DNA from: Alphaproteobacteria bacterium
GTDB taxonomy: Bacteria > Pseudomonadota > Alphaproteobacteria > Rickettsiales > UBA3002
Length of the DNA stretch: 64,000 bases
Reading direction: 5' to 3'
NCBI GenBank assembly: GCA_031402515.1
Contig: JANNSK010000097.1
Coordinates: 7,429-71,428, forward strand
In this document: piece after piece, positions 14,132 through 56,689 of the stretch
Numbering within the stretch: position 1 is the stretch's first letter
How the letters are laid out: every line of letters begins with the position of its first letter
Program-made: the position numbers and the translations under genes
The notes under the pieces: generated by a model
Told to the model about the DNA's origin: nothing
Database searches by the model: none
What the model saw: the letters and a program-made list of their open reading frames with translations, nothing else

Positions 14132-14359
14132 CAGAGTCTGAGAGTCGAGTGAAGAATGCCCTCACCCGAAAATCGTGAAGGACGATTTTCGACCTCTCCC
14201 AAGGGAGAGGTAGGCAAGCCGCTCGCTCCTGTTCTTTCTTCCAATCCGCGCCAGCGGATACCCCTCTCCCTTGGGAGAGGTCAAAATCCACTTCTTGGTG
14301 GATTTTGGGTGAGGGCATGCTGGCAGGAATTTTCACTCGACTCTCGACTCTCGATTCTG
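14132..14359. repeat. inverted heptamer-array hairpin, unit GAGAGTC, with a ~160-bp GC-rich element nested in the loop
   Basis: Arms cagagtctgagagtcgagtgaagaat (14132-14157) and attttcactcgactctcgactctcgattctg (14329-14359). Confidence 0.85.
14158..14317. repeat. GC-rich MITE-like element, family A variant
   Basis: Terminal inverted repeats gccctcacccgaaaatc / gattttgggtgagggc. Internal hairpins cctctcccaagggagagg and cccctctcccttgggagagg. Confidence 0.8.
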
Positions 14360-18897: not shown

Positions 18898-20568
18898 ATG
18901 CACGTCACGCCACTACCAGATGTTGTCATCCTGCTCGCCGCTGCGGTGGTCATCGTCAGCGCCTTCCGTGCCATGGGTTTGAGCCCGGTGCTCGGCTACC
19001 TCGTGGCGGGCGCGCTTATCGGCCCCACCGGCATCGGCTGGATTTCCGACCTCGATACGACCTCCTCGATTGCCGAGCTCGGCATCGTGTTCCTGATGTT
19101 CATGATCGGGCTCGACCTCTCATGGGACCGCTTGAAGTCGATGCGGTTTCAGGTTTTCGGCGTGGGCTCGGCGCAGCTTTTCCTCACCTCGCTGGTGCTG
19201 CTGCTCGCCGCGCTGGCCATGGGCGTCAATTTCACGGATGCATTGATTATCAGCGGCGCCTTGAGCCTTTCCTCCACCGCACTGGTGCTCGAACTGCTGC
19301 GCGGCCACAAGGAGCTTGCCACGCAAACCGGACGGCTATCGCTTGCCATCCTCATCCTGCAGGATCTCGCCGCACTTCCATTGCTCGTGCTTATTACCGT
19401 GCTCGGCAAGGGCGAAGGGTCATTGTGGGAAGCGATGGTTAATGCCGGGATAAATGCACTGGCTGCACTGGTGTTGATCGCCATTGCCGGGCGTCTGCTA
19501 CTGCGCCCGTTATTTCGTATGATTGCCCGTTTCGATATTCACGAACTCTTCGTGGCCACTGTATTGCTGGTGGTATTAGGCATTGCCTGGCTGACCGAAT
19601 CGGCCGGACTGTCGATGGCGATGGGCGCCTTCCTCGCCGGATTGTTCATCGCCGAGACCGAGTTCCAACAACAAATCGAGCTCGATGTGCGCCCCTACAA
19701 ACGCCTGCTCATGGGATTGTTTTTCATGACGGTTGGCATGCGCATGGATCCCGCCTTCATCGTGGACAATCTAACGGAAATGCTATTCTGGGCCGCCGGG
19801 TTGATCGTAATAAAGGCCGGCCTGCTTTACGTTGTGCTCAAAGCTTTCAAATATACGCGGCGCACCTCCGCCCATACGGCGTTGCTGCTCGCCCAGGGCG
19901 GCGAGTTCGGCTTTATTATGTTTGGATTGGCGGCGACCTTGGGCGTGCTCGAAGGCGAAGTGGTACAAAAACTCCTCATCGTCATCACCCTCACCATGGC
20001 GGCCACCCCGCTGCTCGATATGATGGGTTCGCAATTGGAGCGGCGCTGGTGGCGGACGGTGAAACGGAGAAAGCCCGAAGCCATTGCTGAAGAAACGCAG
20101 GATATTTCCGGTCACATTATTATCGCCGGTTACGGGCGCATGGGAAAAATGATCGCGAACCATCTGGCCGAGGAGCGCATCCCCTTCCTCGCCCTTGATT
20201 CGGCGCCGAAGGAAATCTCCGCCGGGCGCAAGGCACACCATCCGGTGTATTTCGGTGATGCCGCGCGGCCCGATGTGCTCGAAGCGCTGGGCATTTCCCG
20301 CGCCATCGCGCTGGTCATCACGCTGCATGACCCCGACGCGGCGGAGAAGCTGGCAGGCCTCATGCGCGACCGCTATCCGGATCTGCCCATCATTGCCCGC
20401 ACCAGCGATGCCAAACACGCCCATCGGCTGGAGGCGCGTGGCGTCAGCGCCGTGCCCGAGCTGCAAGTGGCTGGCATGCGCATGCTTTCCAGCCTGTTTT
20501 CTATCCTCGGGCGCCCGGAGGAAGATATTCACCGGGTCATGGAGCAGGTGCGAAGGGCGGCGGGCTAA
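18898..20568 (+). CDS. CPA2-family cation:proton antiporter with C-terminal TrkA-N (KefB/KefC-like)
   Basis: Multi-TM Na/H-exchanger region followed by IIIAGYGRMG (Rossmann, TrkA-N). Confidence 0.85.
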   Translation: MHVTPLPDVVILLAAAVVIVSAFRAMGLSPVLGYLVAGALIGPTGIGWISDLDTTSSIAELGIVFLMFMIGLDLSWDRLKSMRFQVFGVGSAQLFLTSLVLLLAALAMGVNFTDALIISGALSLSSTALVLELLRGHKELATQTGRLSLAILILQDLAALPLLVLITVLGKGEGSLWEAMVNAGINALAALVLIAIAGRLLLRPLFRMIARFDIHELFVATVLLVVLGIAWLTESAGLSMAMGAFLAGLFIAETEFQQQIELDVRPYKRLLMGLFFMTVGMRMDPAFIVDNLTEMLFWAAGLIVIKAGLLYVVLKAFKYTRRTSAHTALLLAQGGEFGFIMFGLAATLGVLEGEVVQKLLIVITLTMAATPLLDMMGSQLERRWWRTVKRRKPEAIAEETQDISGHIIIAGYGRMGKMIANHLAEERIPFLALDSAPKEISAGRKAHHPVYFGDAARPDVLEALGISRAIALVITLHDPDAAEKLAGLMRDRYPDLPIIARTSDAKHAHRLEARGVSAVPELQVAGMRMLSSLFSILGRPEEDIHRVMEQVRRAAG

Positions 20569-20582
20569 AGTAAGTTTGGCGC

Positions 20583-20722
20583 GGCGGTGAGGTTCCTCCC
20601 CCCTCTAGGGGGGAGGTTAGGAGGAGGGCGTTTTCCGCTTACTCCGAATCCGAGTTTTATGGAGAAGCTGCCGCCCTCACCCCACCCTCCCCCTCAAGGG
20701 GGAGGGAGCCATAGACCGTGCC
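20583..20722. repeat. GC-rich MITE-like element, family A (inverted relative to 12065-12198)
   Basis: cctcccccctctaggggggaggttaggagg ... gccgccctcaccccaccctccccctcaagggggaggg ... gaccgtgcc. Confidence 0.85.
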
Positions 20723-20771
20723 CAACTAACGCTGCCGCTTTTTGTGTTGTCCGCGACGCTCGCACGAAAAA

Positions 20772-20797
20772 CACTCGACTCTCGACTCTCGACTCTG
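20772..20797. repeat. solo heptamer array (GACTCTC x3; complement of the GAGAGTC unit), no partner arm
   Basis: cactcgactctcgactctcgactctg, 15 nt upstream of the prs ATG and about 50 nt downstream of a GC-rich element. Confidence 0.8.
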
Positions 20798-20811
20798 TTA
20801 TCACTCGCCCC

Positions 20812-21747
20812 ATGAAACTCATCGCCGGGAACAGTAACCAGCCGTTAGCGAAAGCGATGGCGGATTATCTGAAGCTGAAGCTGACCGACGCTTCCATCCG
20901 CCGGTTTTCCGATAATGAGATTTTCGTCGAGATACAGGAAAACGTGCGCGGTGAGGATGTATTCGTCATCCAGTCGACGAGCTTTCCCACCAACGACCAT
21001 TTGATGGAATTAATGATCATGCTCGATGCGTTGCGTAGGGCTTCCGCCAGCCGGGTGACGGCGGTGATTCCCTATTTCGGCTATGCGCGTCAGGACAGAA
21101 AGCCCGGTCCGCGCACGCCGATTTCGGCCAAGCTTGTCGCCAACCTCATCACCGAAGCCGGTGCCGACCGCGTGCTCACCGTCGATTTACACGCCGGTCA
21201 GATACAAGGTTTCTTCGACATACCGCTCGACCATCTCTATGCGCGGCCGGTGATCGTCGACGACATCAAGGAACATTTCAAGGACTTGGGCAACCTCATG
21301 ATTGTCTCGCCCGATACGGGCGGCGTGGTGCGCGCCCGCTCGCTCGCCGGCAAGCTCGATGTTGATCTGGCTATCGTCGATAAGCGGCGCGAGAAGGACA
21401 ACCAGTCGGAAGTGATGAACATCATCGGCGAGGTGAAGGGCAGGGACTGTATCCTGTTCGACGATATCGTCGATACGGCAGGCACGCTTTGCAACGCCGC
21501 CAAGGCGATCATGGACGAGGGGGCAAAATCCGTATCGGCCTACGTCACCCACGGCGTGCTTTCGGGACCGGCGCTGGCGCGGGTGGAAAAATCCGTACTG
21601 AAATCCCTCGTCGTTACCGACTCGATCATGGCCACGGAAGCCGCCAAGAAATGTGGCAACTTACGCATCATTTCCATCGCCCCGCTGCTTGCCGAAGCGG
21701 TCAATCGGATTGCTGAGGAAAGCTCGGTTTCTAGCTTATTTGATTAG
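20812..21747 (+). CDS. prs: ribose-phosphate pyrophosphokinase
   Basis: [14 protein letters not shown]..., [19 protein letters not shown]. The ORF-track start at 20587 runs through a repeat element. Confidence 0.95.
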
Positions 21748-21815
21748 GGATTGGGGATTGGGGATTAGGGATTAGGGGAAATTCCCTTAAAACCCAATCC
21801 CTAATCCCCCATCCC
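21745..21815. repeat. inverted heptamer-array hairpin, unit GGGATTR
   Basis: tagggattggggattggggattagggattagggg-aaatt-cccttaaaacccaatccctaatcccccatccc. It starts on the prs stop codon. Confidence 0.9.
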
Positions 21816-21900
21816 TTGAGCATTGACAGGCCCTCACCCCGTCGCTATAGATACGCGCCCTAAAACAACGGCAAAGCAAGCAATCCTTAAGGAGAAGCCC

Positions 21901-22665
21901 ATGAAAGCGGCAGTGGAAATGAACGCGGAAGAGCGCAAAAGCATCGGTAAAGGTGCCGCACGCGCTGCGCGCCGTGATGGCAAAGTGCCAGTTGAGCTTT
22001 ATGCCAACGGCAAAGGCAACGTGTCGCTCAATGTCGAGGCGCGCCAGTTTGCCAACGAATATTTCAAGGGCGGCTTCATGAATAAAGTCGTCGCGCTCAA
22101 GGCAGGCGGCAAAGATTATTTTGCCATCCCGCGCGCCATCCAGCTCAATCCCGTATCGGACAAAATCGAACATGCTGATTTCATCCAGGTCGATGAAAAA
22201 TCGGTGGTGAAAGTCTTCATCCCGCTGCATTTCAAAAACACCGATAAATCGCCCGGCATCAAGCGCGGCGGCGTACTCAACGTGGTCCGTCACTCGATCG
22301 AGCTTCTCTGCCCGGTAAAATCCATCCCCGCCTTCCTTGATGTCGATGTTGGCGCGCTCGAAATCGGCAACTCCATCCATATCAGCAAATTGAAACTCCC
22401 CGAAGGTGTGACCACCGTCATTAAAGGCCGTGACTTCACCATCGCTTCTGTCGCCGGTCGCCAGAAGGAGGAAGAAGAAGTTCCAGTCGCAGCTGCTGCT
22501 GCCGTACCGGGTGCCGATTCCGTCGTTGGTGCCGCTGGCGCTGCGCCGGGCGCTCCGGGCGCTGCTGCCCCCGCTGCTGGCGCCGCGCCGGCTGCAGGTG
22601 GCAAAGGCGCTGCTGCTTCCGCTGCTGGCGGCAAGGCTCCCGCTGCTCCTGCTGGCAAAAAATAA
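21901..22665 (+). CDS. rplY: 50S ribosomal protein L25/general stress protein Ctc
   Basis: L25/Ctc N-terminal and beta-barrel domains with an Ala/Pro/Gly-rich tail. AAGGAG ribosome-binding site before the ATG at 21901. Confidence 0.9.
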   Translation: MKAAVEMNAEERKSIGKGAARAARRDGKVPVELYANGKGNVSLNVEARQFANEYFKGGFMNKVVALKAGGKDYFAIPRAIQLNPVSDKIEHADFIQVDEKSVVKVFIPLHFKNTDKSPGIKRGGVLNVVRHSIELLCPVKSIPAFLDVDVGALEIGNSIHISKLKLPEGVTTVIKGRDFTIASVAGRQKEEEEVPVAAAAAVPGADSVVGAAGAAPGAPGAAAPAAGAAPAAGGKGAAASAAGGKAPAAPAGKK

Positions 22666-24996: not shown

Positions 24997-25025
24997 AAAA
25001 AAAAGACCGGGCACAAGGCCCGGCC
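24997..25025 (-). terminator. Rho-independent terminator, minus-strand specific
   Basis: On the minus strand: GGCCGGGC-cttgt-GCCCGGTC followed by T8. On the plus strand there is no T-run. It lies about 440 nt downstream of the LysR stop. Confidence 0.7.
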
Positions 25026-25140
25026 AGATTTAAACAGGGAGGCAAGCGCGCCTTGGTCGTTGCACCTTAGCGCGCCTTACGTTTCGCGCGAAACCGCGCC
25101 AAACGAGCCGCGACCATAGAGATGCTGCTTTGCAACACAA

Positions 25141-29509: not shown

Positions 29510-29571
29510 AAGCCTACAGCCAACAGCTTACAGCCTACAGCTAAGAGCTGTCGGCTGTCGGCTGTAGGCTT
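29510..29571. repeat. inverted heptamer-array hairpin, unit GCCTACA/GCTGTAG
   Basis: aagcctacagccaacagcttacagcctacagct-aag-agctgtcggctgtcggctgtaggctt. It occupies essentially the entire ahpC-trxB spacer. Confidence 0.9.
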
Positions 29572-30298: not shown

Positions 30299-30338
30299 GT
30301 ATTGAACGGTAAAAAATCCCCAGCCTAGAATGGGACAT

Positions 30339-30414
30339 CGCGTAGCCGCGGCCAGCGGCGAGCCTTTAGAGGGGGAACGGAGTGGGGGCGTCTTCGCCCC
30401 CCGCGCTTTAGCGC
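30339..30414. repeat. GC-rich repeat, family B
   Basis: cgcgtagccgcggccagcggcgagcctttagagggggaacggagtgggggcg... It shares a ~50-nt near-identical block with 43382-43459. Confidence 0.85.
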
Positions 30415-31367
30415 TAACTTAAAGCCTGCGGAAAGCGTGCGCGGATTTCATACGCCACCTTGCCCGCATCGTCCAGCGCTGCTTTAGGGGTCCAATCGAG
30501 GGTGGTATTGGCGTCCAATGGTCTTGCCAGCCCTTCGGCGTAGAGTTTGGCATGAAACCGCGTGTATTTCTCCGGCAGCACGCGCGGCACGGTGTAGATG
30601 GACACGGGTTTACCCGAAGCGCAGGTCTCCGATACCATCGACAGCGAATCGCCGGTGACGATGATGGCGTCCGCACAACCGAGAATGCCGAGATAGGGGC
30701 TGTCCTTATCGGTATGGAAACGGTGGAGCAGGTGCGGTCCTTGTACCAACGTGCCGGCAAACGCGATGGCCTCCTGCGGCGTGCGGCGGCTGGTGGTGAT
30801 GAGCAGTGAGCCTTGACCCGCAAGTCGCTGTGCCTGCTGGAGCACATCGCGCCAGTCGGTGGCGGTGTAGCGCCCATACCGCGTGTCACCGCCCAAAACC
30901 AGCGCCACCCATGGCCGCGGCAGATGGGCGAATTGACCTGCCCAGCTACGTTTCGCTACCTCAAGTGCTTCCGGCGTGACCGCATGCAGCGGTGCCAGTG
31001 TGGTGAGCACATTATCCCGCTTTAACGGCAGGTCATGTTCCGGCATGGCGATCAGGTCAATGTCCTGCGCGATATCCGGCCGCATCAGGTAAACAGTTGT
31101 CGTCGTCGGTGATTTTCTCTTGATAAAACGCAGGACGGGAATGGTCCGTCGACCGGCAGCAATAACCAGCTTGGGCCATGGCGGAGCAATCGGGGCAGAC
31201 ATGCTGCGGTCGGTGCCGATGAGGCTTGTCCCGCGCAGAAAATTCGGCAAGTTAACAAGCGCGTTATAGTCGAGCTTCTTGAGCGTGAAGGGTTGGCCGA
31301 GCTTGGCAATCACCCCGAGCACCTGCCCAGTGGCGGCATCGTCGACCAGTCCCCAGACGTTACTCAT
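30414..31367 (-). CDS. ELM1/mitochondrial-fission-like family protein (DUF1022)
   Basis: 317 aa with an ELM1-like sequence. Its start overlaps the greA stop. Confidence 0.6.
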   Translation of the reverse strand: MSNVWGLVDDAATGQVLGVIAKLGQPFTLKKLDYNALVNLPNFLRGTSLIGTDRSMSAPIAPPWPKLVIAAGRRTIPVLRFIKRKSPTTTTVYLMRPDIAQDIDLIAMPEHDLPLKRDNVLTTLAPLHAVTPEALEVAKRSWAGQFAHLPRPWVALVLGGDTRYGRYTATDWRDVLQQAQRLAGQGSLLITTSRRTPQEAIAFAGTLVQGPHLLHRFHTDKDSPYLGILGCADAIIVTGDSLSMVSETCASGKPVSIYTVPRVLPEKYTRFHAKLYAEGLARPLDANTTLDWTPKAALDDAGKVAYEIRARFPQALS

Positions 31368-31840: not shown

Positions 31841-31997
31841 AGGATTAAGGCTCTTAAGATGAGTGAGGAGCAAAATGCCCGCCTACCATAGCCCGCCTGT
31901 CAGAAACTTCAAGTGCCGGGAGCACTCCTCAAAATTCATGAGAATGTCACATTCGGCCATGGCTGTTTCGGCTATACTTATCGTGAAAGAGGCACTT

Positions 31998-32606
31998 ATG
32001 GCCGATAGATACGACCTACCAAGAATTCCGGTAACCGACAAGCCGACCATCTTCAATCGTGAAGCGGGCGGGTGGGGCCTGCTTGGCAGCATGATCGGCA
32101 GTATGATACCTTTTGGTAGCCTGATTGGTGCCGCTGTGGGGATTGCGTATGGCGGCAGCAAGGGCATGCGGCGCATGGAGCGTGAGCTGGTCGAAGGCCG
32201 CGCTGTCAAAGACCCGACTTATTGGAACAGTGGCGTCTGGAGCGGCTGGCTCATTGGCATCCTGCTGGTAATGCCGGTGCTTCTCCTTAGCTTTGTTACC
32301 GGCGGTCTGTTGATTGGCGTTGCCCTTGCGGCCCCGCTCATCGGCGCCGTCATCGGCAGCAATATCCGCTATAACAGCATGAAACAGGATATAGGCATGG
32401 CTGTCGCCCTGCGCAATCAGGAACATAACCTCGCCAAAGAAGCCGCGCTAGAACATGAAATGGGCCGCGCACCCACCGTCTACAAAGATTCCGTGAGTCG
32501 TGAAGAGGCGGCAGCCCTCGAGCAGAAATCCTCAAAACCGCGCAACCATCTCGACGAAATGCTCACCCACCGCACCCAGCTTTCCGAGCTTGAAGCCAAG
32601 CGCTAG
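31998..32606 (+). CDS. hypothetical membrane protein with glycine-zipper helices and a charged C-terminal tail
   Basis: GAAAGAGG ribosome-binding site before the ATG at 31998. Gly-zipper [27 protein letters not shown]. The 3' end overlaps the carB stop by 4 nt (convergent). Confidence 0.5.
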
Positions 32607-35600
32607 GCGGCGTTGCGCTTACTCATTTTCGCTACGTAATATTGTAACGGTTGCACGTCGAGCCCCTTGGGCGCTTTGGCAATGGCGGCGATGGCCTTGG
32701 TCATCGCGTGCGCACCGGAGATCGTCGTTGAGTAAGGAATCTTGCCGAAGAGTGCGGTTTTGCGGATGGAGGCCGAGTCGGCAATTGAGCGGGCGCCTTC
32801 GGTGGTGTTGAAGACGAGCGCGATTTTTCCATCCTTCATCAGATCGACGATATGCGGCCTGCCTTCGCGTACTTTATTGACGATAGTCACCCCATGCTTT
32901 TGCGATTGCAGATATTCGCCCGTGCCGCGCGTACAGACAATCGTGAAACCAAGCGCAATGAGTTCACCAGCGATTCTCGCCGCCATTTCTTTATCGCGGT
33001 CTTTGACCGACAGGAACACCGCGCCCTTTTTCGGCAAGGTGGAGCCCGAACCGATATAGCCCTTGGCAAAGGCGTGGGCGAAGTCGCGATCGATGCCCAT
33101 GGTCTCGCCGGTGGATTTCATTTCCGGTCCCAAAATAATATCGACACCGGGGAAACGGGCGAAGGGGAACACGACTTCTTTCACGGCCACGTGTTTCAGC
33201 GACTTCATATGGGTGCGATCATCCGGAAGGTTGAAGGTTTTGAGCATTTCACCCGCCATCAATCGCGCCGCGATTTTGGCGATGGGAATGCCGGTGGCTT
33301 TGGCGACGAAAGGCACGGTGCGCGAGGCGCGCGGGTTGACTTCAATGATATAGATTTCGCCGCCCTTAATCGCGAACTGCACATTCATCAGCCCGCGGAC
33401 TTTCAGCGCCAGCGCCATGGCCTTAGTTTGTTTCTGCACTTCTTCAATGAGCGCGTCGCTTAGCGAGTAAGGGGGCAAGCTGCAGGCTGAGTCACCCGAA
33501 TGGATGCCAGCCTCCTCGATATGCTCCATCACGCCCGCGACATAGGTATCTTTACCATCGCACAGGCAGTCGACATCGAGTTCGATGGCGTCGCTCAGGT
33601 AGGAATCAAGCAGTACCGGCCCGTCGCCGAACATGCTGAGCAGTTCTTTCACGTAATTCTTTAGCGTATCGGGTTCATGGATAATCTTCATGGCGCGGCC
33701 ACCCAGCACATAGGAGGGGCGCACCACCACCGGGTAGCCAATTTTCTCGGCTTGTTCGATGACATCATCCGCGTGTTTGCAGATGGCGTTTTTCGGCTGC
33801 TTGAGTTTGAGTTTATGCAGCAGTTGCTGGAAGCGCTCGCGATCCTCAGCCAAATCAATCGAATCGACCGAGGTACCGATAATCGGAATGCCTGCCTGCT
33901 CCAGCGCGTGGGCAAGTTTGAGCGGCGTTTGGCCCCCGAACTGCACGATGCAGCCTACGATTTCACCATTTTTCGCCTCGGCCTCGATAATCTCAATCAC
34001 ATCCTCAGCGGTGAGCGGTTCGAAATAAAGCCGGTCGGAAGTATCATAATCTGTCGACACCGTTTCCGGGTTGCAGTTGATCATGATGGTTTCGTAGTTT
34101 TCTCTTGAAGGGGGGCTTGCCCCCCCTTCGCTTCGCTGACCCCTGCCGCTTCGCGGCTCGCCTTCGGCTACGCGCGCGCCATTTCCGCGCAGAGCGTAGG
34201 CGGCGTGCACGCAGCAATAATCAAATTCGATACCCTGGCCGATGCGATTCGGCCCGCCGCCCAGGATAAAGATCTTTTTGGCCGACGAAGGCGCAACCTC
34301 CGATTCGGCCGCGGTTTCACCATCCCCCTCATAGGTCGAGTACATATACGGGGTGAGGGAAGAGAATTCCGCCGCACAGGTATCGACGCGTTTGAACACG
34401 GGACGGATGTTATGTTTATGGCGCAGTGCGCGGATTTTTAGCTCGTCCGTTTTCGTAAGCCGCGCCAATTGCCGATCCGAGAAGCCGAGTTTTTTGAGAT
34501 GCTGTAACTCGCGCGCATCTTTCGGCAGGCCGTTTTCTTTTACCCAATTCTCTGCATCGACGATGGTTTTCAACTGGTGAATAAACCACGGATCGTATTT
34601 GGCGATGCTACAGATTTCTTCGACCGACATGCCGAAGCGCAGCGCCTGCGCCGCTTTCAGAATCCGGTCAGGCGAGGGAATAGAAAGCGCCGAGCGCACG
34701 GGATCGAGATTATCCGCCGATGCACCTTCGATTTCCACTTCATCCAGCCCAGTCAAGCCGGTCTCCAGCGAACGCAGCGCCTTTTGCAGTGACTCGGGGA
34801 AGCTGCGCGCCATCGCCATTGCCTCGCCGACGGATTTCATCGCCGTGGTCAGTGTGGCCTCGGAGCCGGGGAATTTCTCGAACGTAAAGCGCGGTATTTT
34901 GGTGACGATGTAATCAATCGTCGGTTCGAACGAGGCCGGCGTGGCTTTCGTCACATCGTTCATCACTTCGTCGAGCGTATAGCCCACCGCGAGTTTCGCC
35001 GCGACCTTGGCAATGGGAAATCCCGTCGCTTTCGAGGCCAGCGCGGAGGAGCGCGACACGCGTGGGTTCATTTCGATGACGACCATGCGGCCATCCGCCG
35101 GGTTCACCGCGAACTGCACGTTGGAGCCGCCGGTATCGACACCGATTTCGCGCAGCACGGCGATCGACGCATCGCGCATGATCTGGAATTCTTTGTCCGT
35201 CAACGTGAGCGCCGGGGCGACGGTGATGGAGTCGCCGGTATGAATCCCCATCGGGTCGACATTTTCAATCGAGCAGACGATAATGCAGTTGTCCGCCTTG
35301 TCGCGCACCACTTCCATCTCGTATTCTTTCCAGCCGAGAACCGACTCGTCGATCATCACTTCGCCGACGGGAGATGCATCAAGGCCCGAGGCCACGATTT
35401 GCTCGAACTCCTCGCGGTTGTAGGCGATGCCGCCGCCGGCGCCGCCCATGGTAAAGCTGGGGCGGATGATGACAGTGGGCCCGACGATTTTGTAGGCTTC
35501 GCGCGCTTCTTCCAGCGATTTCACCACCACATTTTTGGGAACCGCAAGCCCGATGCGCGCCATCGCCTGGCCGAAGAGCAGGCGATCTTCCGCCTTGTTG

Positions 35601-35968
35601 ATGGCCTCGAGCGATGCGCCAATTAACTCTACTCCGTATTTTTTCAGCACGCCGGATTCAGCCAGCGCTTTGGCACAGTTGAGCGCCGTTTGGCCGCCCA
35701 TGGTGGGCAACAGCGCGTCCGGCTTCTCCTTGGCGATGATTTTCTCGACGAACTCTGGCGTAATCGGTTCGATATAGGTCGCATCCGCCAATTCCGGATC
35801 GGTCATGATCGTCGCCGGGTTGGAATTCACCAGAATCACCCGGTAGCCTTCTTTCTTGAGCGTTGTCACCGCCTGCGTGCCCGAATAATCAAACTCGCAG
35901 GCCTGGCCGATCACAATCGGCCCGGCGCCGATGATGAGGATGGATTTTATGTCAGTGCGGCGGGGCAT
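32603..35968 (-). CDS. carB: carbamoyl-phosphate synthase large subunit, with a 28-codon in-frame repeat insertion
   Basis: Full-length CarB with two ATP-grasp halves and an MGS-like C-terminus. An insertion lies at aa 595-622, between ..[10 protein letters not shown] and [15 protein letters not shown]. Confidence 0.95.
34103..34186 (-). repeat. 84-nt family-B-like repeat inserted in frame in carB
   Basis: The carB-sense sequence contains cgcgtagccg and gcgagcc blocks and a G7-caa-C6 hairpin. It encodes [28 protein letters not shown]. Confidence 0.75.
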
Positions 35969-37158
35969 CAGGCCACCCTCTTCTTGTGCGCGTCGATCAT
36001 TTCGACGAAGCGCTTGAACATATAGTGCGAATCATGCGGGCCGGGGGAGGCTTCGGGGTGGCCTTGCACCGAAAACACCGGCGCGGATTTCATTTCGATG
36101 CCTTGGATGGTGCCATCGAACAGCGAACGGTGGGTGACTTCGATTTCTGCAGGCAATCCCGAATCGCTAATGGCGAAGCCATGATTCTGCGAGGTGATAG
36201 ACACCTTACCCGTACGCAAATCCTTCACCGGATGGTTAGCGCCGCGATGGCCCTGTTTCATTTTCTCGGTTTTGGCATTGAGTGCGATGCCCAGCATCTG
36301 GTGGCCGAGGCATATGCCGAATAGCGGGATGCCCGAGGCGATTAGTTTTTTAATGACAGGCACTGCGTATGTACCCGTCGCCGCCGGATCGCCGGGCCCG
36401 TTGGATAAAAATATGCCGTCGGGCTTCAGCGCTAACACATCCTCGGCGCTCGTAGTGGCAGGCACCACGGTGATGCGGCAACCGGCTGAGGCAATGCAGC
36501 GCAGGATGTTCAGCTTCACGCCGTAATCGATGGCTACCACATGGTAAGAGGTGGCAGGTGGCAGGTGGCAGGTGGCAAGCGAGTCATAGCCTTTGCCAAG
36601 CTTCCACTTGGTCTGATCCCAGATGTGGGATTTCTTGGTGGTGACCGTGGCCGCCAATTCCAGTCCAGCCATATTGGGCGCCGCGGCCAGCCGCTGCTTC
36701 GCCTGTTCGCTTGCCACCTGCCACTTGCCACCTGCCACATAAGCAATCGCCGCATTCTGCGCACCCTTGGTGCGGATATGTCGGGTCAGTGCGCGCGTAT
36801 CGACACCGGTAATGCCGGTGAGTTTGTTTTTCTTCAGCCATGCATCGAGATGCAAAGTAGAGCGGAAATTCGATGGGTCGGTAATCGCCTCGCGAAGGAC
36901 AAGACCCGCTACGACGGGTGTCGCGGATTCGATATCCTCGTCGTTGGTGCCTACATTGCCAATATGGGGGAAGGTGAAGGTGATAATCTGGCCGCAATAG
37001 GAGGGATCAGTGAGCACTTCCTGGTAGCCGGTCATCGCGGTATTAAAACAGATTTCACCAGAGGTGGCACCTTCATGCCCGATGCCATATCCGGAAAACA
37101 CCGCCCCGTCCGCGAGTACCAGCGCGGCGTTCGGGGGTTTTACCAGCGACACGACCAT
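35968..37158 (-). CDS. carA: carbamoyl-phosphate synthase small subunit (glutaminase)
   Basis: CarA N-terminal domain followed by a class-I GATase (GICLGHQ, HRG.NHPV, QGHPE). The stop overlaps the carB start. Confidence 0.95.
36548..36738. repeat. inverted heptamer arrays (unit GTGGCAG) inside carA, arms 128 nt apart
   Basis: gaggtggcaggtggcaggtggcaggtggcaagc (36548-36580) and gcttgccacctgccacttgccacctgccac (36709-36738). Confidence 0.9.
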
Positions 37159-37286: not shown

Positions 37287-38072
37287 TTAAAACGCCTTCC
37301 TGAAATACAGCGCGCACTGGCTGGTCTGGTCGGTCGTGCGGTAGCTGGCGGCGAGATCATCATCGGCGGAGCCCGCATCATCAGCCGAGGCGCAGGCATC
37401 GTCCCAGAAACGAGCGATGACGGAACCCGAGGCGGGCTTGCCGTCATCCAGTTTGGAGTCGAGATCGTATGCATCCTGTGGCGAGATGGCGGCGGCATGG
37501 GTGAGGTCGTTCGTCGTTTTATGGCCGATGACAAGATAATTGCCGTAATCCAGTGCATAGGCTGACGCATCGCCCGCGAAATCCGGCGCCAGCCAACTCA
37601 CTGACCAGCCAGCCCCGCTGAGTTTGGAATCCGGCACGTTGGTGCCAATCATGCTGTCGTAGGCACCGCCTGCGCCCGCAAGGCCCGTGAAATAGCCGCC
37701 GATAAAATCGGCCAAACCCAGCTGTTTCCAGAATTGGTAGAGTTCCGATGTGTCGCCTGCGGCGCCCACGGTCATCATCACGTCGTTGTTGCCGTTGCAA
37801 GTGCCGGGGCTGCCGTTGGTGATAGCAGCGTCGGCGCAGGTGGCGTTATCGTCGCCCCACACCGTCGTCGCATTTTTCATATCGCCGGGGAGTGCAGAGT
37901 ATTTGGCACGGAAGTTCTGAACGGCGGCGATAGTGCGTTGATGCTCGGTCGTAATGGCGCGCAACTCGCCGGAACGGATGAGCGCTGCGCCGCCCACTAT
38001 CCCGCCCACGATGAGGCCGATGATGACGAGCACAATGGCGAGTTCGACAAGGGTGAATGCTAAGCGAGCCAT
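37287..38072 (-). CDS. type IV pilin-like protein (prepilin-type N-terminal cleavage/methylation domain), paralogue 1
   Basis: MARLA|FTLVELAIVLVIIGLIVGG and a C-terminal Cys pair. It is a paralogue of 59116-59874 (shared LPGDMKNAT..WG, NVP...GAG, D.KLD.G.P.SG). Confidence 0.75.
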   Translation of the reverse strand: MARLAFTLVELAIVLVIIGLIVGGIVGGAALIRSGELRAITTEHQRTIAAVQNFRAKYSALPGDMKNATTVWGDDNATCADAAITNGSPGTCNGNNDVMMTVGAAGDTSELYQFWKQLGLADFIGGYFTGLAGAGGAYDSMIGTNVPDSKLSGAGWSVSWLAPDFAGDASAYALDYGNYLVIGHKTTNDLTHAAAISPQDAYDLDSKLDDGKPASGSVIARFWDDACASADDAGSADDDLAASYRTTDQTSQCALYFRKAF

Positions 38073-38073
38073 A

Positions 38074-38153
38074 AGCCCACAGCCTACAGCCCACAGCACT
38101 TCCGAGCAAGCGTCTCGGCCAAGCTAAAAGCTGTAGGCTGTTAGCTGTTGGCT
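38074..38153. repeat. inverted heptamer-array hairpin, unit GCCYACA/GCTGTWG
   Basis: agcccacagcctacagcccacagc ... aagctgtaggctgttagctgttggct. It lies between the phaZ stop and the pilin-like start. Confidence 0.9.
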
Positions 38154-43332: not shown

Positions 43333-43381
43333 CCGGCCTATATAGCGCAGACCACGCGTATTCTGCAATGTATGGGTACGC

Positions 43382-43459
43382 CGCGTAGCTGCGATCAGCA
43401 GCGAGCCTTTAGAGGGGGAACGGAGTGGGGGCGGGACGCCCCCTGCGCGCTTGCGCGCC
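43382..43459. repeat. GC-rich repeat, family B
   Basis: cgcgtagctgcgatcagcagcgagcctttagagggggaacggagtgggggcg... It lies just upstream of the uvrB start. Confidence 0.85.
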
Positions 43460-43466
43460 AAACAAA

Positions 43467-44414
43467 TTACTTCCCGGTCACCGGCCCGCCGCTATGGACG
43501 AAGCTGACGATGGCAGGGCCGAGGACGATGAGAAGGAACGCCGGCATCAGCAGGAAGATCAGGGGGATGGTGAGCAGCACCGGCAGGCGAGCCGCTTTGG
43601 CTTCGGCATGCGATAAACGCTGCAAGCGGAAATCTTCGGACAGGACACGCAGCGTGTCGGTGAGTGAAGTGCCAAAGCGCTCGGACTGAATGAGTGCGGC
43701 GACCAGCGAGCGGAAGGCGACCATGTTGGTACGCTCGCCCAGGTTCATCAGGGCGCGCACGCGGTCGTTAATGAGGGCGAGCTCAAGCCGTGTGCGGTTA
43801 AGCTCGGCGGTCATTTCAGGATAAGCGCGGCCAAGTTCGGTGCAGACGCGGTTGAGCGCCGCATCGAGAGCAAGGCCCGATTCCACGCAGATCAGCAGCA
43901 AGTCGAGCGTATCGGGAAAGGCGCGTTGCAGCAGCTTAGCGCGGTGATCGACCCGGTTTTTCAGCCACAGATGTGGGCCACACAGCGCGGCAGCACCCAC
44001 AAACACGCCGCAGGCCTTATGGAACATAGCTTGTTCTGAATTGCTGCTCATCAGCAGCACAAGCGCGATGAAGAACAGGAAAATAGAAGCAATGCGCTGG
44101 AAGAACAGATATTGGATTGGGGCGTCGGGCGAGTTGATGCCAGCCTGGCCGAATTTCGGCTCGAGTTTACGCACCGCCTCGTCGACATTCACCCCGAGCA
44201 GCTTGAGCAGGCGGCTTAGGGCCTTCACGCCAGCGCTCGGTTCGGCTTCGAGCGTTACCAGCGCTTCGGTGCTGTCGCCGCTGCGTGACGAACCATCCGG
44301 TGCGATGCGCAGTTTCAACGAAGCGCGGCGTCTCTTCTCCTCCATATAGCGGTCGAACAGCAGGTAGCTGAAGAACACCATGGCGGCGACGAGAAGTGCT
44401 GCGAGGATTTTCAT
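43467..44414 (-). CDS. tadC: Tad pilus inner-membrane platform protein TadC (T2SS-F family)
   Basis: GspF-like domain and TM topology. It is the last gene of the cpa/tad operon. Confidence 0.8.
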
Positions 44415-44436
44415 GGTAACACCCGCAGCAAGCCAT

Positions 44437-44518
44437 GAGCCGACAGCCTGTAGCCGACAGCTTTAGAAACAATGCAGATGGTTAAAAGCTCTAGGCTGTA
44501 GGCTGTAAGCTGTAGGCC
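44437..44518. repeat. inverted heptamer-array hairpin, unit GCCGACA/GCTGTAG
   Basis: gagccgacagcctgtagccgacagcttt ... aaagctctaggctgtaggctgtaagctgtaggcc. It lies between tadB and tadC inside the operon. Confidence 0.9.
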
Positions 44519-51593: not shown

Positions 51594-51653
51594 GTGTGGC
51601 AGGTGACAAGTGACAGGTGGCATGTGGCCCCTATCGCCTGCCACTTGCCACCA
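51594..51653. repeat. inverted heptamer-array hairpin, unit GTGRCAR (asymmetric arms)
   Basis: gtgtggcaggtgacaagtgacaggtggcatgtggc ... gcctgccacttgccacc, in the divergent cpaB/guaA spacer. Confidence 0.8.
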
Positions 51654-55259: not shown

Positions 55260-55332
55260 ATGTGACAAGTGACAGGTGGCAGGTGACATGTTACGCCTCG
55301 GCCCTTGTCACCTGTCACCTGTCACATGTCAC
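55260..55332. repeat. inverted heptamer-array hairpin, unit GTGACAG
   Basis: atgtgacaagtgacaggtggcaggtgacatg ... cttgtcacctgtcacctgtcacatgtcac. It runs from the bamB stop to 5 nt before the der ATG. Confidence 0.9.
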
Positions 55333-55336
55333 TCTT

Positions 55337-56689
55337 ATGAGCGCAGCGAAAATCATCGCCATTATCGGCCGGCCGAACGTGGGTAAATCCACGCTCTTTA
55401 ACCGGCTTGTGGGCAAAAAAATGGCGCTGGTCGACGACCAGCCCGGTGTCACGCGCGATCGCCGCTACGCGAAAGCCGAGCTCGCCGGGATGAAATTCGA
55501 CATTATCGATACGGCGGGGATGGAAGAAAAAGCGCCCGACACACTCACCGCGCGCATGATGAATCAAACACGCGAAGCCATCAAAGAAGCCGACATCATT
55601 TTGTTCATGGTCGATGCGCGCGCGGGCGTGACTCCGGCGGATGAATCGTTCGCCCGCCTGCTGCACCAAAGCGGCAAACCCATCGTGCTCACCGTCAACA
55701 AGGCCAAAGGCCGCGCCGGGACCAACGTCATGGGTGAAATCTATGCCTTGGGCTTTGAAAATCTTGCGCTCATCTCCGCCGAGCATGGCGAAGGCATGGG
55801 CGATTTGTTCGATGCGCTTTCGCCATTGATTGGCCAGGATCAGGCCGACATCGACGAAGGCGAGAAGCCGCTAAAAATCACGATTCTAGGAAGGCCCAAC
55901 GCCGGCAAGTCCACGCTGGTCAACGCGCTGCTCGGTGAGGATCGCTTGCTGACCAGCCCGGAGGCGCACACCACGCGCGACGCCATCGCCGTGCGGTTCG
56001 AGCATAACGGCAAGCCGGTCGAAATCGTCGATACCGCAGGCATGCGCAAACGCGCCAATATGCAAGGCAAGGTGGAGCATCTGGCCGTCGCCGATTCCAT
56101 CCGCGCCATGCAATTCGCCGAAATCGTCATCGTGCTGATCGACGCCACCGCGCCGCTCGAGAAGCAGGACGCGAACATTGCATCGCTGGTGGAGCGCGAA
56201 GGCCGCGCCTGTGTGATCGGCGTGAATAAATGGGATCTCGTCACCGGCGATAAAAAAGTCTGGATGGAGGAATTCAAATACCAGCTAAGCAAACATTTGT
56301 TCCAGATGGCGGGCGTCACCGTGGTGCCGATCTCCGCCTCGCGGGGCAAGGGCCTCGACACACTCATCGACGCCTGTTTTGCCGCGCGCGATGTGTGGGA
56401 ATCGCGCGTATCGACGCCGGACCTCAATAACTGGCTGGAGGGTATGCTGGGCGCCCACACCACGCCGATGATCCGTGGCCGTCGCCTCAAAATCAAATAC
56501 ATGACGCAGGTGAAAACGCGGCCGCCGACATTCCAACTTTTCTGCAATATGTCGCGCGAATTCCCCGATGCCTATCTGCGCTACCTCGTCGCCGGCATCC
56601 GCAAAACCTTCGCCATGGAAGGCACACCGATTCGCACTATCCTCAAAGTCAGCAACAACCCGTTCGAGAAGAAAAAGAAGAAAAAATGA
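55337..56689 (+). CDS. der: ribosome-biogenesis GTPase Der (EngA)
   Basis: Two tandem GTPase domains (GRPNVGKST twice, DTAG twice, NK.D) plus a KH-like C-terminus. The ATG at 55337 is preferred. Confidence 0.95.
   Translation: MSAAKIIAIIGRPNVGKSTLFNRLVGKKMALVDDQPGVTRDRRYAKAELAGMKFDIIDTAGMEEKAPDTLTARMMNQTREAIKEADIILFMVDARAGVTPADESFARLLHQSGKPIVLTVNKAKGRAGTNVMGEIYALGFENLALISAEHGEGMGDLFDALSPLIGQDQADIDEGEKPLKITILGRPNAGKSTLVNALLGEDRLLTSPEAHTTRDAIAVRFEHNGKPVEIVDTAGMRKRANMQGKVEHLAVADSIRAMQFAEIVIVLIDATAPLEKQDANIASLVEREGRACVIGVNKWDLVTGDKKVWMEEFKYQLSKHLFQMAGVTVVPISASRGKGLDTLIDACFAARDVWESRVSTPDLNNWLEGMLGAHTTPMIRGRRLKIKYMTQVKTRPPTFQLFCNMSREFPDAYLRYLVAGIRKTFAMEGTPIRTILKVSNNPFEKKKKKK

Follow-up and report, generated by a model that had tools for sequence, protein, structure and literature searches.

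The carB locus and its insert

The 64,000-nt stretch analysed here, called the window throughout, comes from an alphaproteobacterial assembly (GCA_031402515.1, contig JANNSK010000097.1, positions 7,429 to 71,428 of the forward strand), and the element in question is a short segment within its gene for the large subunit of carbamoyl-phosphate synthase. This gene, carB, is called as an open reading frame (ORF) of 1121 aa at 32603–35968 on the minus strand; carA (35968–37158) lies directly upstream, its stop overlapping the carB start at 35968 with no extra ORF between the two, and greA lies downstream in the ORF list. The segment covers 84 nt, or 28 codons (34103–34186, minus strand; aa 595–622), was delimited from the translation and from alignments with relatives, and has a G+C content of 70% compared with 56% for the window. 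The first-pass annotation of this DNA had proposed it to be a repeat inserted in frame into an intact and conserved gene, much in the manner of the Rickettsia palindromic elements (RPEs). The refutation tests that were run support this core claim.

When the protein is aligned with HMMER to the solved E. coli CarB, the match splits precisely at the insert: ALRGNG pairs with residues 589–593 (ALREDG), and the alignment resumes at ENYETIM with residues 592–598 (DGYETIM). The insert takes the place of the tight turn R590–G593, where the carbamoyl-phosphate half of CarB begins. The contiguity of the flanks in E. coli, as given in the first-pass annotation, is confirmed by this split; the split and the uninserted relatives described below together bear out the addition of 28 codons with the frame kept. 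At the DNA level, a megablast alignment with the carB gene of one relative (L087) breaks at window 34188/34093. Registers shifted by 3 or 6 nt (34100–34183 and 34097–34180) are equally valid, because there is no target-site duplication (TSD) to fix the ends; none was found at the carB junctions when these were compared with empty sites.

Fifty CarB proteins with 72–84% identity were aligned as relatives; at the DNA level, the best of the relatives' loci have 75–82% nucleotide identity to the window, and none is from the same species. Most relatives read ALK-(D/E)AG-YETIM or ALR-(S/G/D)-(N/D/Q/T)-YETIM, that is, two to three residues versus 30 in the window CarB. The closest relative with DNA (L123; CarB ~84% identical) shares the gene order pseudopilins-carA-carB-greA-Elm1 with the window and has no insert at any carB site, and in another relative (L122) the site is empty and reads CGC AGC AAT TAC GAG. 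Filled and empty states are interleaved on a neighbour-joining tree of CarB (P0053 filled beside P0038 empty; P0015 filled beside P0026 empty). These comparisons show that the insert is a derived state, gained in the lineage leading to this genome, and they dispose of the concern that close relatives might share the same 28 residues.

Integrity of the host gene

The window protein is a CarB of the usual kind, with two tandem ATP-grasp halves, oligomerization and MGS-like allosteric domains and similarity over its full length. The Pfam domains CPSase_L_D1, D2 and D3 and MGS are found on P0001, a protein identical to it, and phmmer matches the tested segment to 1BXR at 1e-110. All columns invariant across the 50 relatives are retained. 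The ratio of nonsynonymous to synonymous substitution rates (dN/dS) of the window gene is 0.11–0.12 against L123, L122 and L003, and 0.10–0.15 among those relatives themselves, values that are approximate as dS is high. An AlphaFold2 model of the protein (predicted template-modelling score 0.82) is matched by Foldseek to the E. coli structures 1M6V and 1BXR with TM scores of 0.89/0.94 and 58–59% identity. The low dN/dS, the retention of the invariant columns and the fold matching that of E. coli CarB establish that carB is not decaying, as had been feared, but is intact and under purifying selection.

In the same model, a confident helix (residues 578–594) precedes the insert and a strand (626–631) follows it, while insert residues 597–621 are coil without secondary structure, with a predicted local distance difference test score (pLDDT) below 50 (~24). 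The insert is therefore predicted to be a disordered loop in an otherwise intact host fold. In the modelled monomer this coil lies at the E. coli turn R590–G593 with the CarB fold preserved, as would suit an RPE-type insertion, and agrees with the suggestion of a surface loop in the first-pass annotation.

A family of four-hairpin repeats

Plain BLAST of the insert against the window finds nothing beyond 10–11-mers, and a three-way MAFFT alignment with the two intergenic repeats first labelled ‘family B’ is unconvincing. It took copies found in other genomes, together with a covariance model, to make the kinship of the insert with repeats visible. The carB gene of relative L001 has the same first 22 nt in its insert (GCGCGTAGCCGAAGGCGAGCCG), although its CarB is ~73% identical to that of the window and its flanking codons differ, and a motif scan of the first relative loci revealed intergenic and intragenic copies with the same order of blocks. 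A species-representative genome collection, scanned with a pattern spanning three conserved linkers, gave at least 118 loci. True elements number ~85 among the matches listed and all occur in uncultured alphaproteobacterial metagenome-assembled genomes (MAGs) that carry the labels ‘Rickettsiales bacterium’, ‘Azospirillum’ or ‘Alphaproteobacteria bacterium’. The remaining loci, from high-G+C actinomycetes and other organisms, match by chance or through a gene and are without the 3' half. The genomes that host the family have 56% G+C and contigs of >2 Mb. Their element load, as judged by the covariance model, is uneven, from 0 copies in 23 kb of L123, and likewise none in L122, to ten in 23.7 kb of L002.

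An nhmmer profile of 73 distinct copies from other genomes has a single match in the window, at 34105–34174 on the minus strand (E = 3.1e-12), and cmsearch with the covariance model places the four-hairpin core of the element at 34104–34177 on the same strand with 71 bits (34105–34174 by leave-one-out nhmmer). Between them, these two models refute the possibility that the segment is dissimilar to repeats when properly aligned. The insert is a member of a four-hairpin subfamily, recognized by its linker GGGGTCAG, that is abundant in related MAGs. Searched against Rfam, the element gave no match at the gathering score of any family; the top one by E-value (0.43) fell well short of it. A 68-aa query of concatenated insert peptides against a protein collection returned six candidates and no match, with a word index that is ill-suited to short low-complexity peptides.

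The covariance model was trained on 74 copies with both intergenic window copies left out, and apart from the insert only these two score in the window: 30336–30404 (plus strand; 25.9 bits, E = 6e-5) and 43379–43446 (plus strand; 25.8 bits, E = 7e-5). The sequence-only nhmmer profile does not reach them. They share with the insert the head GCGTAGC-H1-GCGAGCC and the terminal G/C-run hairpin, and differ from it in the middle (...GAGGGGGAACGGAGTGGGGGCG...). The blocks that the first-pass annotation had seen in common between the insert and 30339–30414 and 43382–43459 thus mark a real kinship (26 bits, E ~6e-5), albeit weaker than was stated, these copies belonging to a sister subfamily. The sister subfamily also forms the inserts at carB site 598 of L001 and L002 (peptides ...GEPERSERGGAVAGAG...).

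Anatomy of the element

Read in the carB sense, the element is (T)GCGTAG-H1-GCGAGCC-H2-(A/G)GGGGTCAG-H3-G(A/T)AGG...H4...CC(T/A)TC followed by ~9 A-rich bases, a unit of 66–89 nt in which four different hairpins stand in direct order, joined by invariant linkers. In the carB copy, all of it on the minus strand, the 5' head GCGTAG, with its GTAG tag beside H1, lies at 34168–34173; it is invariant in 74/74 aligned copies, by construction of the search pattern, and the positions flanking it are conserved too. H1 (GCC-GAA-GGC, 34160–34168) is followed by the linker GCGAGCC (34155–34161), the last two bases of which are overlapped by H2 (CCGC-GAA-GCGG, 34146–34156); after H2 comes the next invariant linker, GGGGTCA(G) (34137–34143). 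H3 is a mini-hairpin here (GCGAAGC, 34130–34136), longer and covarying in other copies. The terminal hairpin H4 (GAAGGGGGG-GCAAG-CCCCCCTTC, 34107–34129) is the G7/C6 hairpin already noticed in the first-pass annotation. An A-rich tail, AAGAGAAAA (34098–34106), defined from the downstream profile and read in carB within ...SRE(N), accompanies coding and non-coding copies alike. At the 3' junction stands the host sequence CTAC (34094–34097; GTAG on the plus strand), a putative target site that includes the Tyr codon of YETIM (E. coli Y594).

The stems are conserved as pairs rather than as letters. In H1 the covarying exchange CG to GC is balanced at 29:29, with stem variants CGCT/GGCG, CC/GG and CCC/GGG; H3 occurs as GCGGC/GCCGC, GCACC/GGTGC and GTCGC/GCGAC, and H4 as GGGGAC/GTCCCC, GGGGGC/GCCCCC, GGGGGT/ACCCCC and GGGGCC/GGCCCC, its pairs 80/94 and 81/93 covarying in 28 and 14 sequences, respectively. 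Across the 74-sequence alignment, standard pairs fill 86.9% of cells, compared with 43–55% when the 3' partners are slid by 1–3 columns, and double-sided changes occupy 96 cells against 39.8 ± 4.4 in column shuffles, none of 500 shuffles reaching 96. This support comes from pair counting on the alignment; a count of anchored arms falls short for H2 and H4, where spacers are ambiguous and T-T mismatches occur. RNAalifold offered a long-range pairing between two invariant linkers, GAGCC and GGGTC, which was not adopted, since invariant columns neither support nor refute it. Terminal inverted repeats (TIRs) of the form 5' GCGTAGC ... GCTACGC 3' were rejected, being present in 2/48 of the 3' flanks.

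Partial copies also occur. In L087, carB site 598 (~2267–2303) retains the terminal hairpin H4 alone, as GAAGGGGAC-AAAAA-GTCCCCTTC, read ...EGDKKSPS..., implying either that the other modules were lost by internal deletion or that H4 is mobile by itself. ‘Scars’ of 5–9 residues in several relatives may be further remnants of elements.

In-frame copies in core genes

Nearly a third of the strict copies (24/75, ~32%) are internal to a stretch free of stops that extends for 40 codons or more to either side. NCBIfam bears out HisN, PriA, LeuRS, RadA, PurH, MutY, DapE, MnmC, MurA and KdsB as hosts, and CarB joins them with copies at three sites (~339, 598 and 870); a canonical copy also sits in the CarA linker of L090, at the edge of the locus. 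LeuRS and HisN each have copies at one shared position in two genomes, translated in frames that differ, which speaks for independent events or, at least, for a tolerance that does not depend on frame.

Insertions recur at about six sites of CarB, near residues 339, 418, 507, 550, 598 and 870, which are occupied in different relatives by peptides of at least five repeat families, and the protein reaches a length of up to 1242 aa. Site 598, that of the window insert, carries inserts of at least 11 aa in 21/50 relatives, again from at least five families.

In L002, uvrC (20384–22378, minus strand) contains two antisense copies (20850–20932 and 21376–21439, plus strand), and three more form a cluster just outside the gene (20206–20373). 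In the window, carA contains a run of (GTGGCAG)n heptamers (36551–36587, minus strand), belonging to another repeat family of the window, in frame in the inter-domain linker of CarA; at this position L123 reads ELRGDEKTLP and L002 holds a full element of the sister subfamily. Two further intergenic families of the window are heptamer arrays with their reverse complements (ACAGCCT.../...AGGCTGT and GTGACAG.../...CTGTCAC), at 29518–29569, 38067–38152 and 44431–44517, and also at 2849–2922, 51603–51639 and 55262–55338. Heptamer-style repeats form ‘SHQSPVTS...GDWRLET’ inserts in frame in CarB, LeuRS and PriA of L002, L096, L082 and L012. PriA of L046 (990 aa) appears from its sequence to have gained an entire additional domain similar to an endonuclease of the DUF559/Vsr type (...RKNLTEAEKKLWRLLR...IIELDGGQH...), flanked by proline/glycine-rich peptides derived from repeats, besides several small repeat inserts.

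Genomic context, target and orientation

The other 51 of the 75 strict copies are not internal to ORFs, and 26 of these have an opposite-strand ORF that ends 2–17 nt beyond the 3' end of the element. Both intergenic copies of the window likewise adjoin the stops of convergent genes. The first abuts the TAG stop (CTA at 30414–30416) of an Elm1-like gene (30414–31367, minus strand); beside the second is an ORF (43467–44414, minus strand) that ends at TTA (43467–43469). More generally, CTA is found at +5 to +19 after the terminal TTC in 43/68 copies (63%) versus 4/68 (6%) in a control window 30 nt further on, and in 14/24 coding copies versus 3/24 in the control, with the mode at +9. There is no conservation beyond the CTA. 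In carB, this trinucleotide is formed by the C and TA of AAC-TAC, in which TAC encodes the conserved Tyr of YETIM, a codon that is present at empty carB sites. The CTA also overlaps a conserved Tyr at CarB site 870 and in LeuRS, where the motif is (V/I)YTTRPDT.

Coding copies are strongly biased in orientation, 20 sense to 4 antisense (P = 7e-5, orthologous copies not being independent). Open frames were rejected as the cause of this bias, as the antisense orientation has more of them (128 stop-free frames compared with 98 in sense). On the coding strands of the hosts, CTA and TAG occur in the ratio 253:93; were the element always placed 5' of a CTA, a sense fraction of 0.73 would be expected, and the 0.83 found is compatible with it (P = 0.19). 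A rule that the element inserts on the 5' side of CTA accounts for the junction motif, for the adjacency to TAG stops and for the orientation bias. Together these features suggest that insertion is target-specific, next to CTA/TAG.

Origin and fate of the insert

The insert is best explained as one copy of a small, non-autonomous structured repeat of ~70–90 nt, with four hairpins and an A-rich tail, which would have landed in the turn of two to three residues that, in the carbamoyl-phosphate half, links the first helix to the second strand. With a length that is a multiple of three, it would be read in one of its two stop-free sense frames as a 28-residue surface loop rich in Gly, Glu, Pro, Ser and Arg, which CarB would tolerate and for which it probably has no use. 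We consider it highly probable that a selfish non-autonomous repeat has inserted in frame where a turn of CarB permits it, and that the protein carries it along as a disordered loop. Purifying selection would remove solely those insertions that break the frame or the fold, letting others survive, and such filtering would lead to the same few loops of CarB and other core proteins being reoccupied, by this family and by unrelated ones. A target preference for CTA and Tyr codons may also contribute to this recurrent use.

Insertion immediately 5' of CTA (3' of TAG on the other strand) would place most copies just after the TAG stops of convergent genes and, within genes, mostly in the sense orientation before ...C-TAY (Tyr). 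The GTAG-tagged hairpins, the apparently fixed short target and the lack of TIRs and TSDs point to mobilization on single-stranded DNA. The tentative candidate for the enzyme is a transposase of the Y1 HUH class, either RAYT or IS200/IS605 in type, with its gene at some other place in the genome, and this is the weakest step of the scheme.

Several points weigh against parts of this interpretation. The CTA stands anywhere between 3 and 19 nt from the element, L122 reads AAT TAC at its empty site, that is, TTAC rather than CTAC, and the CTA might belong to the element as its final three bases or reflect just a preference for TA or micro-homology; because of this variable spacing, the one TTAC site and the doubt over the element's own end, the target rule stays conditional. 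A tblastn search of 0.96 Mb of genome fragments, none a complete genome, with an approximate E. coli RAYT (YafM) sequence, a weak query, found nothing below E = 2. The RNA fold of the insert is modestly more stable than that of shuffles (z = -1.8). Copies at orthologous sites of related genomes are not independent and inflate the counts. The 64-kb window holds one canonical and two sister copies, multi-copy status in the source genome being a matter beyond its ends. The AlphaFold2 model is of a monomer, and clashes with CarA or within the tetramer are outside its reach. Finally, that the insert is translated is something we infer.

Whether the 28 residues could instead be an adaptive, lineage-specific loop of CarB with, for example, a regulatory or interaction function, repeat-like by composition alone, has to be considered, since the site is filled in many relatives and carB is under purifying selection. 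The DNA of the insert, however, belongs significantly to a family that is mostly non-coding, the nearest relatives are without it, and the occupants of the same site come from at least five unrelated repeat families in different frames, with no conserved residues seen across independent occupants. The predicted disorder of the segment, and the scars and partial remnants, which speak of decay rather than maintenance, fit poorly with a functional loop, and this explanation is very improbable.

An equally slight chance attaches to removal of the element at the RNA level, in the manner of an intron, or by translational bypass, such that the CarB protein would be made without the loop. The covarying hairpins and invariant linkers are of the kind found in structured RNA, and T-G pairs in H1 would fit folding of RNA from the sense strand. 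Against this, Rfam, self-splicing introns included, provides no match, the element is far below the size of known self-splicing elements, and four of the in-gene copies are antisense. Each of the 24 copies within genes preserves the frame and is not read in the one with a stop, a constraint for which excision would leave no need, although they were selected as ORF-spanning, and the partial remnant in L087 keeps the frame as well.

It is scarcely credible that this carB is a pseudogene in decay, or else a paralogue that the cell does not need, with the insert as unselected junk. A window of 64 kb leaves room for a second carB in the source genome, yet the copy at hand is a full-length ORF with all invariant residues, a dN/dS (0.11–0.12) equal to that of uninserted relatives, a predicted fold that is intact and a carA-carB-greA synteny conserved with L123, and similar insertions are found in single-copy essential genes of relatives (leuS, priA and murA). 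Local slippage, de novo expansion or an assembly or binning artefact can be dismissed with the most confidence: although the window is probably a metagenome-assembled contig and the exact CarB protein is on record once, the insert is a single non-tandem copy, in frame in a contiguous gene, that matches the profile from other genomes over its whole length, and members of its family stand at this site and elsewhere in MAGs and metagenome contigs that were assembled independently (JGI, ENA and NCBI). An intein was also dismissed, 28 aa being far too short and without splicing motifs.

Relation to known systems

The closest parallel is with the RPEs, reportedly described by Ogata and co-workers in 2000 and in later work. 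Like the RPEs, the present family consists of short repeats in many copies that form hairpins and occur between genes as well as in frame in conserved genes, where the ORF is preserved and the peptide lies in a loop; in both, the load of elements varies strongly between related genomes and copies decay to remnants. The RPE is a single long palindrome, whereas the present element is directional, with four hairpins and invariant linkers; it is G+C-rich (~70%), ~70–90 nt long and resides in 56% G+C genomes with contigs of >2 Mb, and the CTA/TAG junction signature is its own. By analogy, the element may be called RPE-like in behaviour, a likeness drawn otherwise than from comparison of consensus sequences, and it is not filed as an RPE.

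A second parallel is with repetitive extragenic palindromes (REPs) tagged by GTAG and with bacterial interspersed mosaic elements (BIMEs), which are said, from the work of Nunvar (2010) and Ton-Hoang (2012), to be mobilized by RAYT (Y1 HUH) transposases. Here too GTAG stands directly 5' of a G+C-rich stem–loop, as GCGTAG-H1 in every copy and often as GTAGG-H4; the stems include G-T pairs; the usual place of a copy is just 3' of a gene, with the ORFs on its two sides convergent or co-directional; and a minority is inside ORFs of repair, replication and tRNA synthetase genes, which in this family include PriA, RadA, MutY, UvrC and LeuRS. The differences are that GTAG REPs are single palindromes of 20–40 nt or inverted pairs (BIME/REPIN) rather than a fixed composite of four hairpins, and that the fraction within ORFs (~32% of strict copies) is here much above that of classical REPs. 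Di Nocera et al. (2013; PMC3733652), who cite RPE-1, -4 and -6, report that ORFs in Opitutus, Thauera, Xanthomonas and Rickettsia contain GTAG/CGTC REPs, often in repair and replication genes and tRNA synthetases and encoding 20–30 aa. The statement of the first-pass annotation that palindromic repeats inserting in frame are known from Rickettsia holds, while its addition that they are otherwise rare has to be tempered in view of these REPs in the ORFs of several species (PMC3733652).

Palindrome-associated transposable elements (PATEs) derived from IS200/IS605 resemble the family in having hairpins at both ends, with no TIRs and no TSD; they are inserted beside a fixed short sequence, as the family may be. 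In the present family the target is apparently only 3 nt (TAG/CTA) at a variable distance, and no tnpA/tnpB partner sharing its ends was seen; the likeness serves as a working analogy. Transposable elements of the miniature inverted-repeat kind (MITEs) in coding regions of Coxiella burnetii (PMC5896051) are also small non-autonomous repeats that provide in-frame peptide segments, but they are classical TIR-bearing elements of a gammaproteobacterium. The element described here has neither the TIRs nor the TSDs of a classical MITE. No description of this repeat family, nor of RPE-like elements in other alphaproteobacteria or in this clade, was found in searches of the literature. A suggested kinship of the clade with Micavibrio found no support and was dropped.

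Other features of the window and its relatives

The gap between carB and greA (31873–32603) spans ~730 nt and contains an opposite-strand ORF (31863–32606) for a membrane-like protein of 247 aa. It is ~80 nt in the syntenic L123 and holds a chemoreceptor gene in L002, marking a variable insertion point between conserved genes. Between carA and carB, the relatives L001 (283–846), L002 (9508–9999) and L122 (1092–1448) have an extra ORF of 118–187 aa with no Pfam match, and in some of the relatives with this ORF carA is called in two pieces. Rfam matches that reach the gathering score in the window are two copies of Whalefall-1 RNA in opposite orientation ~50 nt apart (14158–14213, minus strand; 14260–14316, plus strand) and the small RNA SorX (24999–25084, minus strand; 47.3 bits versus a gathering score of 46.6).

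Significance

The kind of event described here is already known, from the RPEs of Rickettsia and from GTAG REPs inside ORFs. A larger claim, to which we give somewhat less than an even chance, is that this is an undescribed, clade-wide family of four-hairpin elements inserting next to TAG/CTA, probably by way of a Y1 enzyme, and that together with unrelated families it has repeatedly colonized the same permissive loops in essential proteins by the dozen. With its covarying stems and conserved linkers, the element may also have a function at the level of RNA or DNA.

Inserts of this kind inflate the length of proteins, split the matches of profile hidden Markov models, as happened with E. coli CarB, and can mislead the annotation of MAGs and phylogenetic analyses. 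The same loops of CarB, LeuRS, PriA, MurA and other well-studied enzymes have taken in many independent insertions, which amount to a natural map of the tolerance of large proteins for insertions of 20–40 residues, and the TAG/CTA rule, which can be tested, ties the biology of the element to stop codons and Tyr codons. The picture of essential proteins colonized in frame by selfish hairpin repeats has rested largely on Rickettsia and on scattered REPs, and a second system, in a different alphaproteobacterial lineage, is now added. If the larger claim is true, these genomes, which are G+C-rich and not reduced, would hold a counterpart to what the RPEs are in Rickettsia, independent of them and perhaps larger, in which CarB alone would have about six recurrent sites and up to ~130 extra residues.

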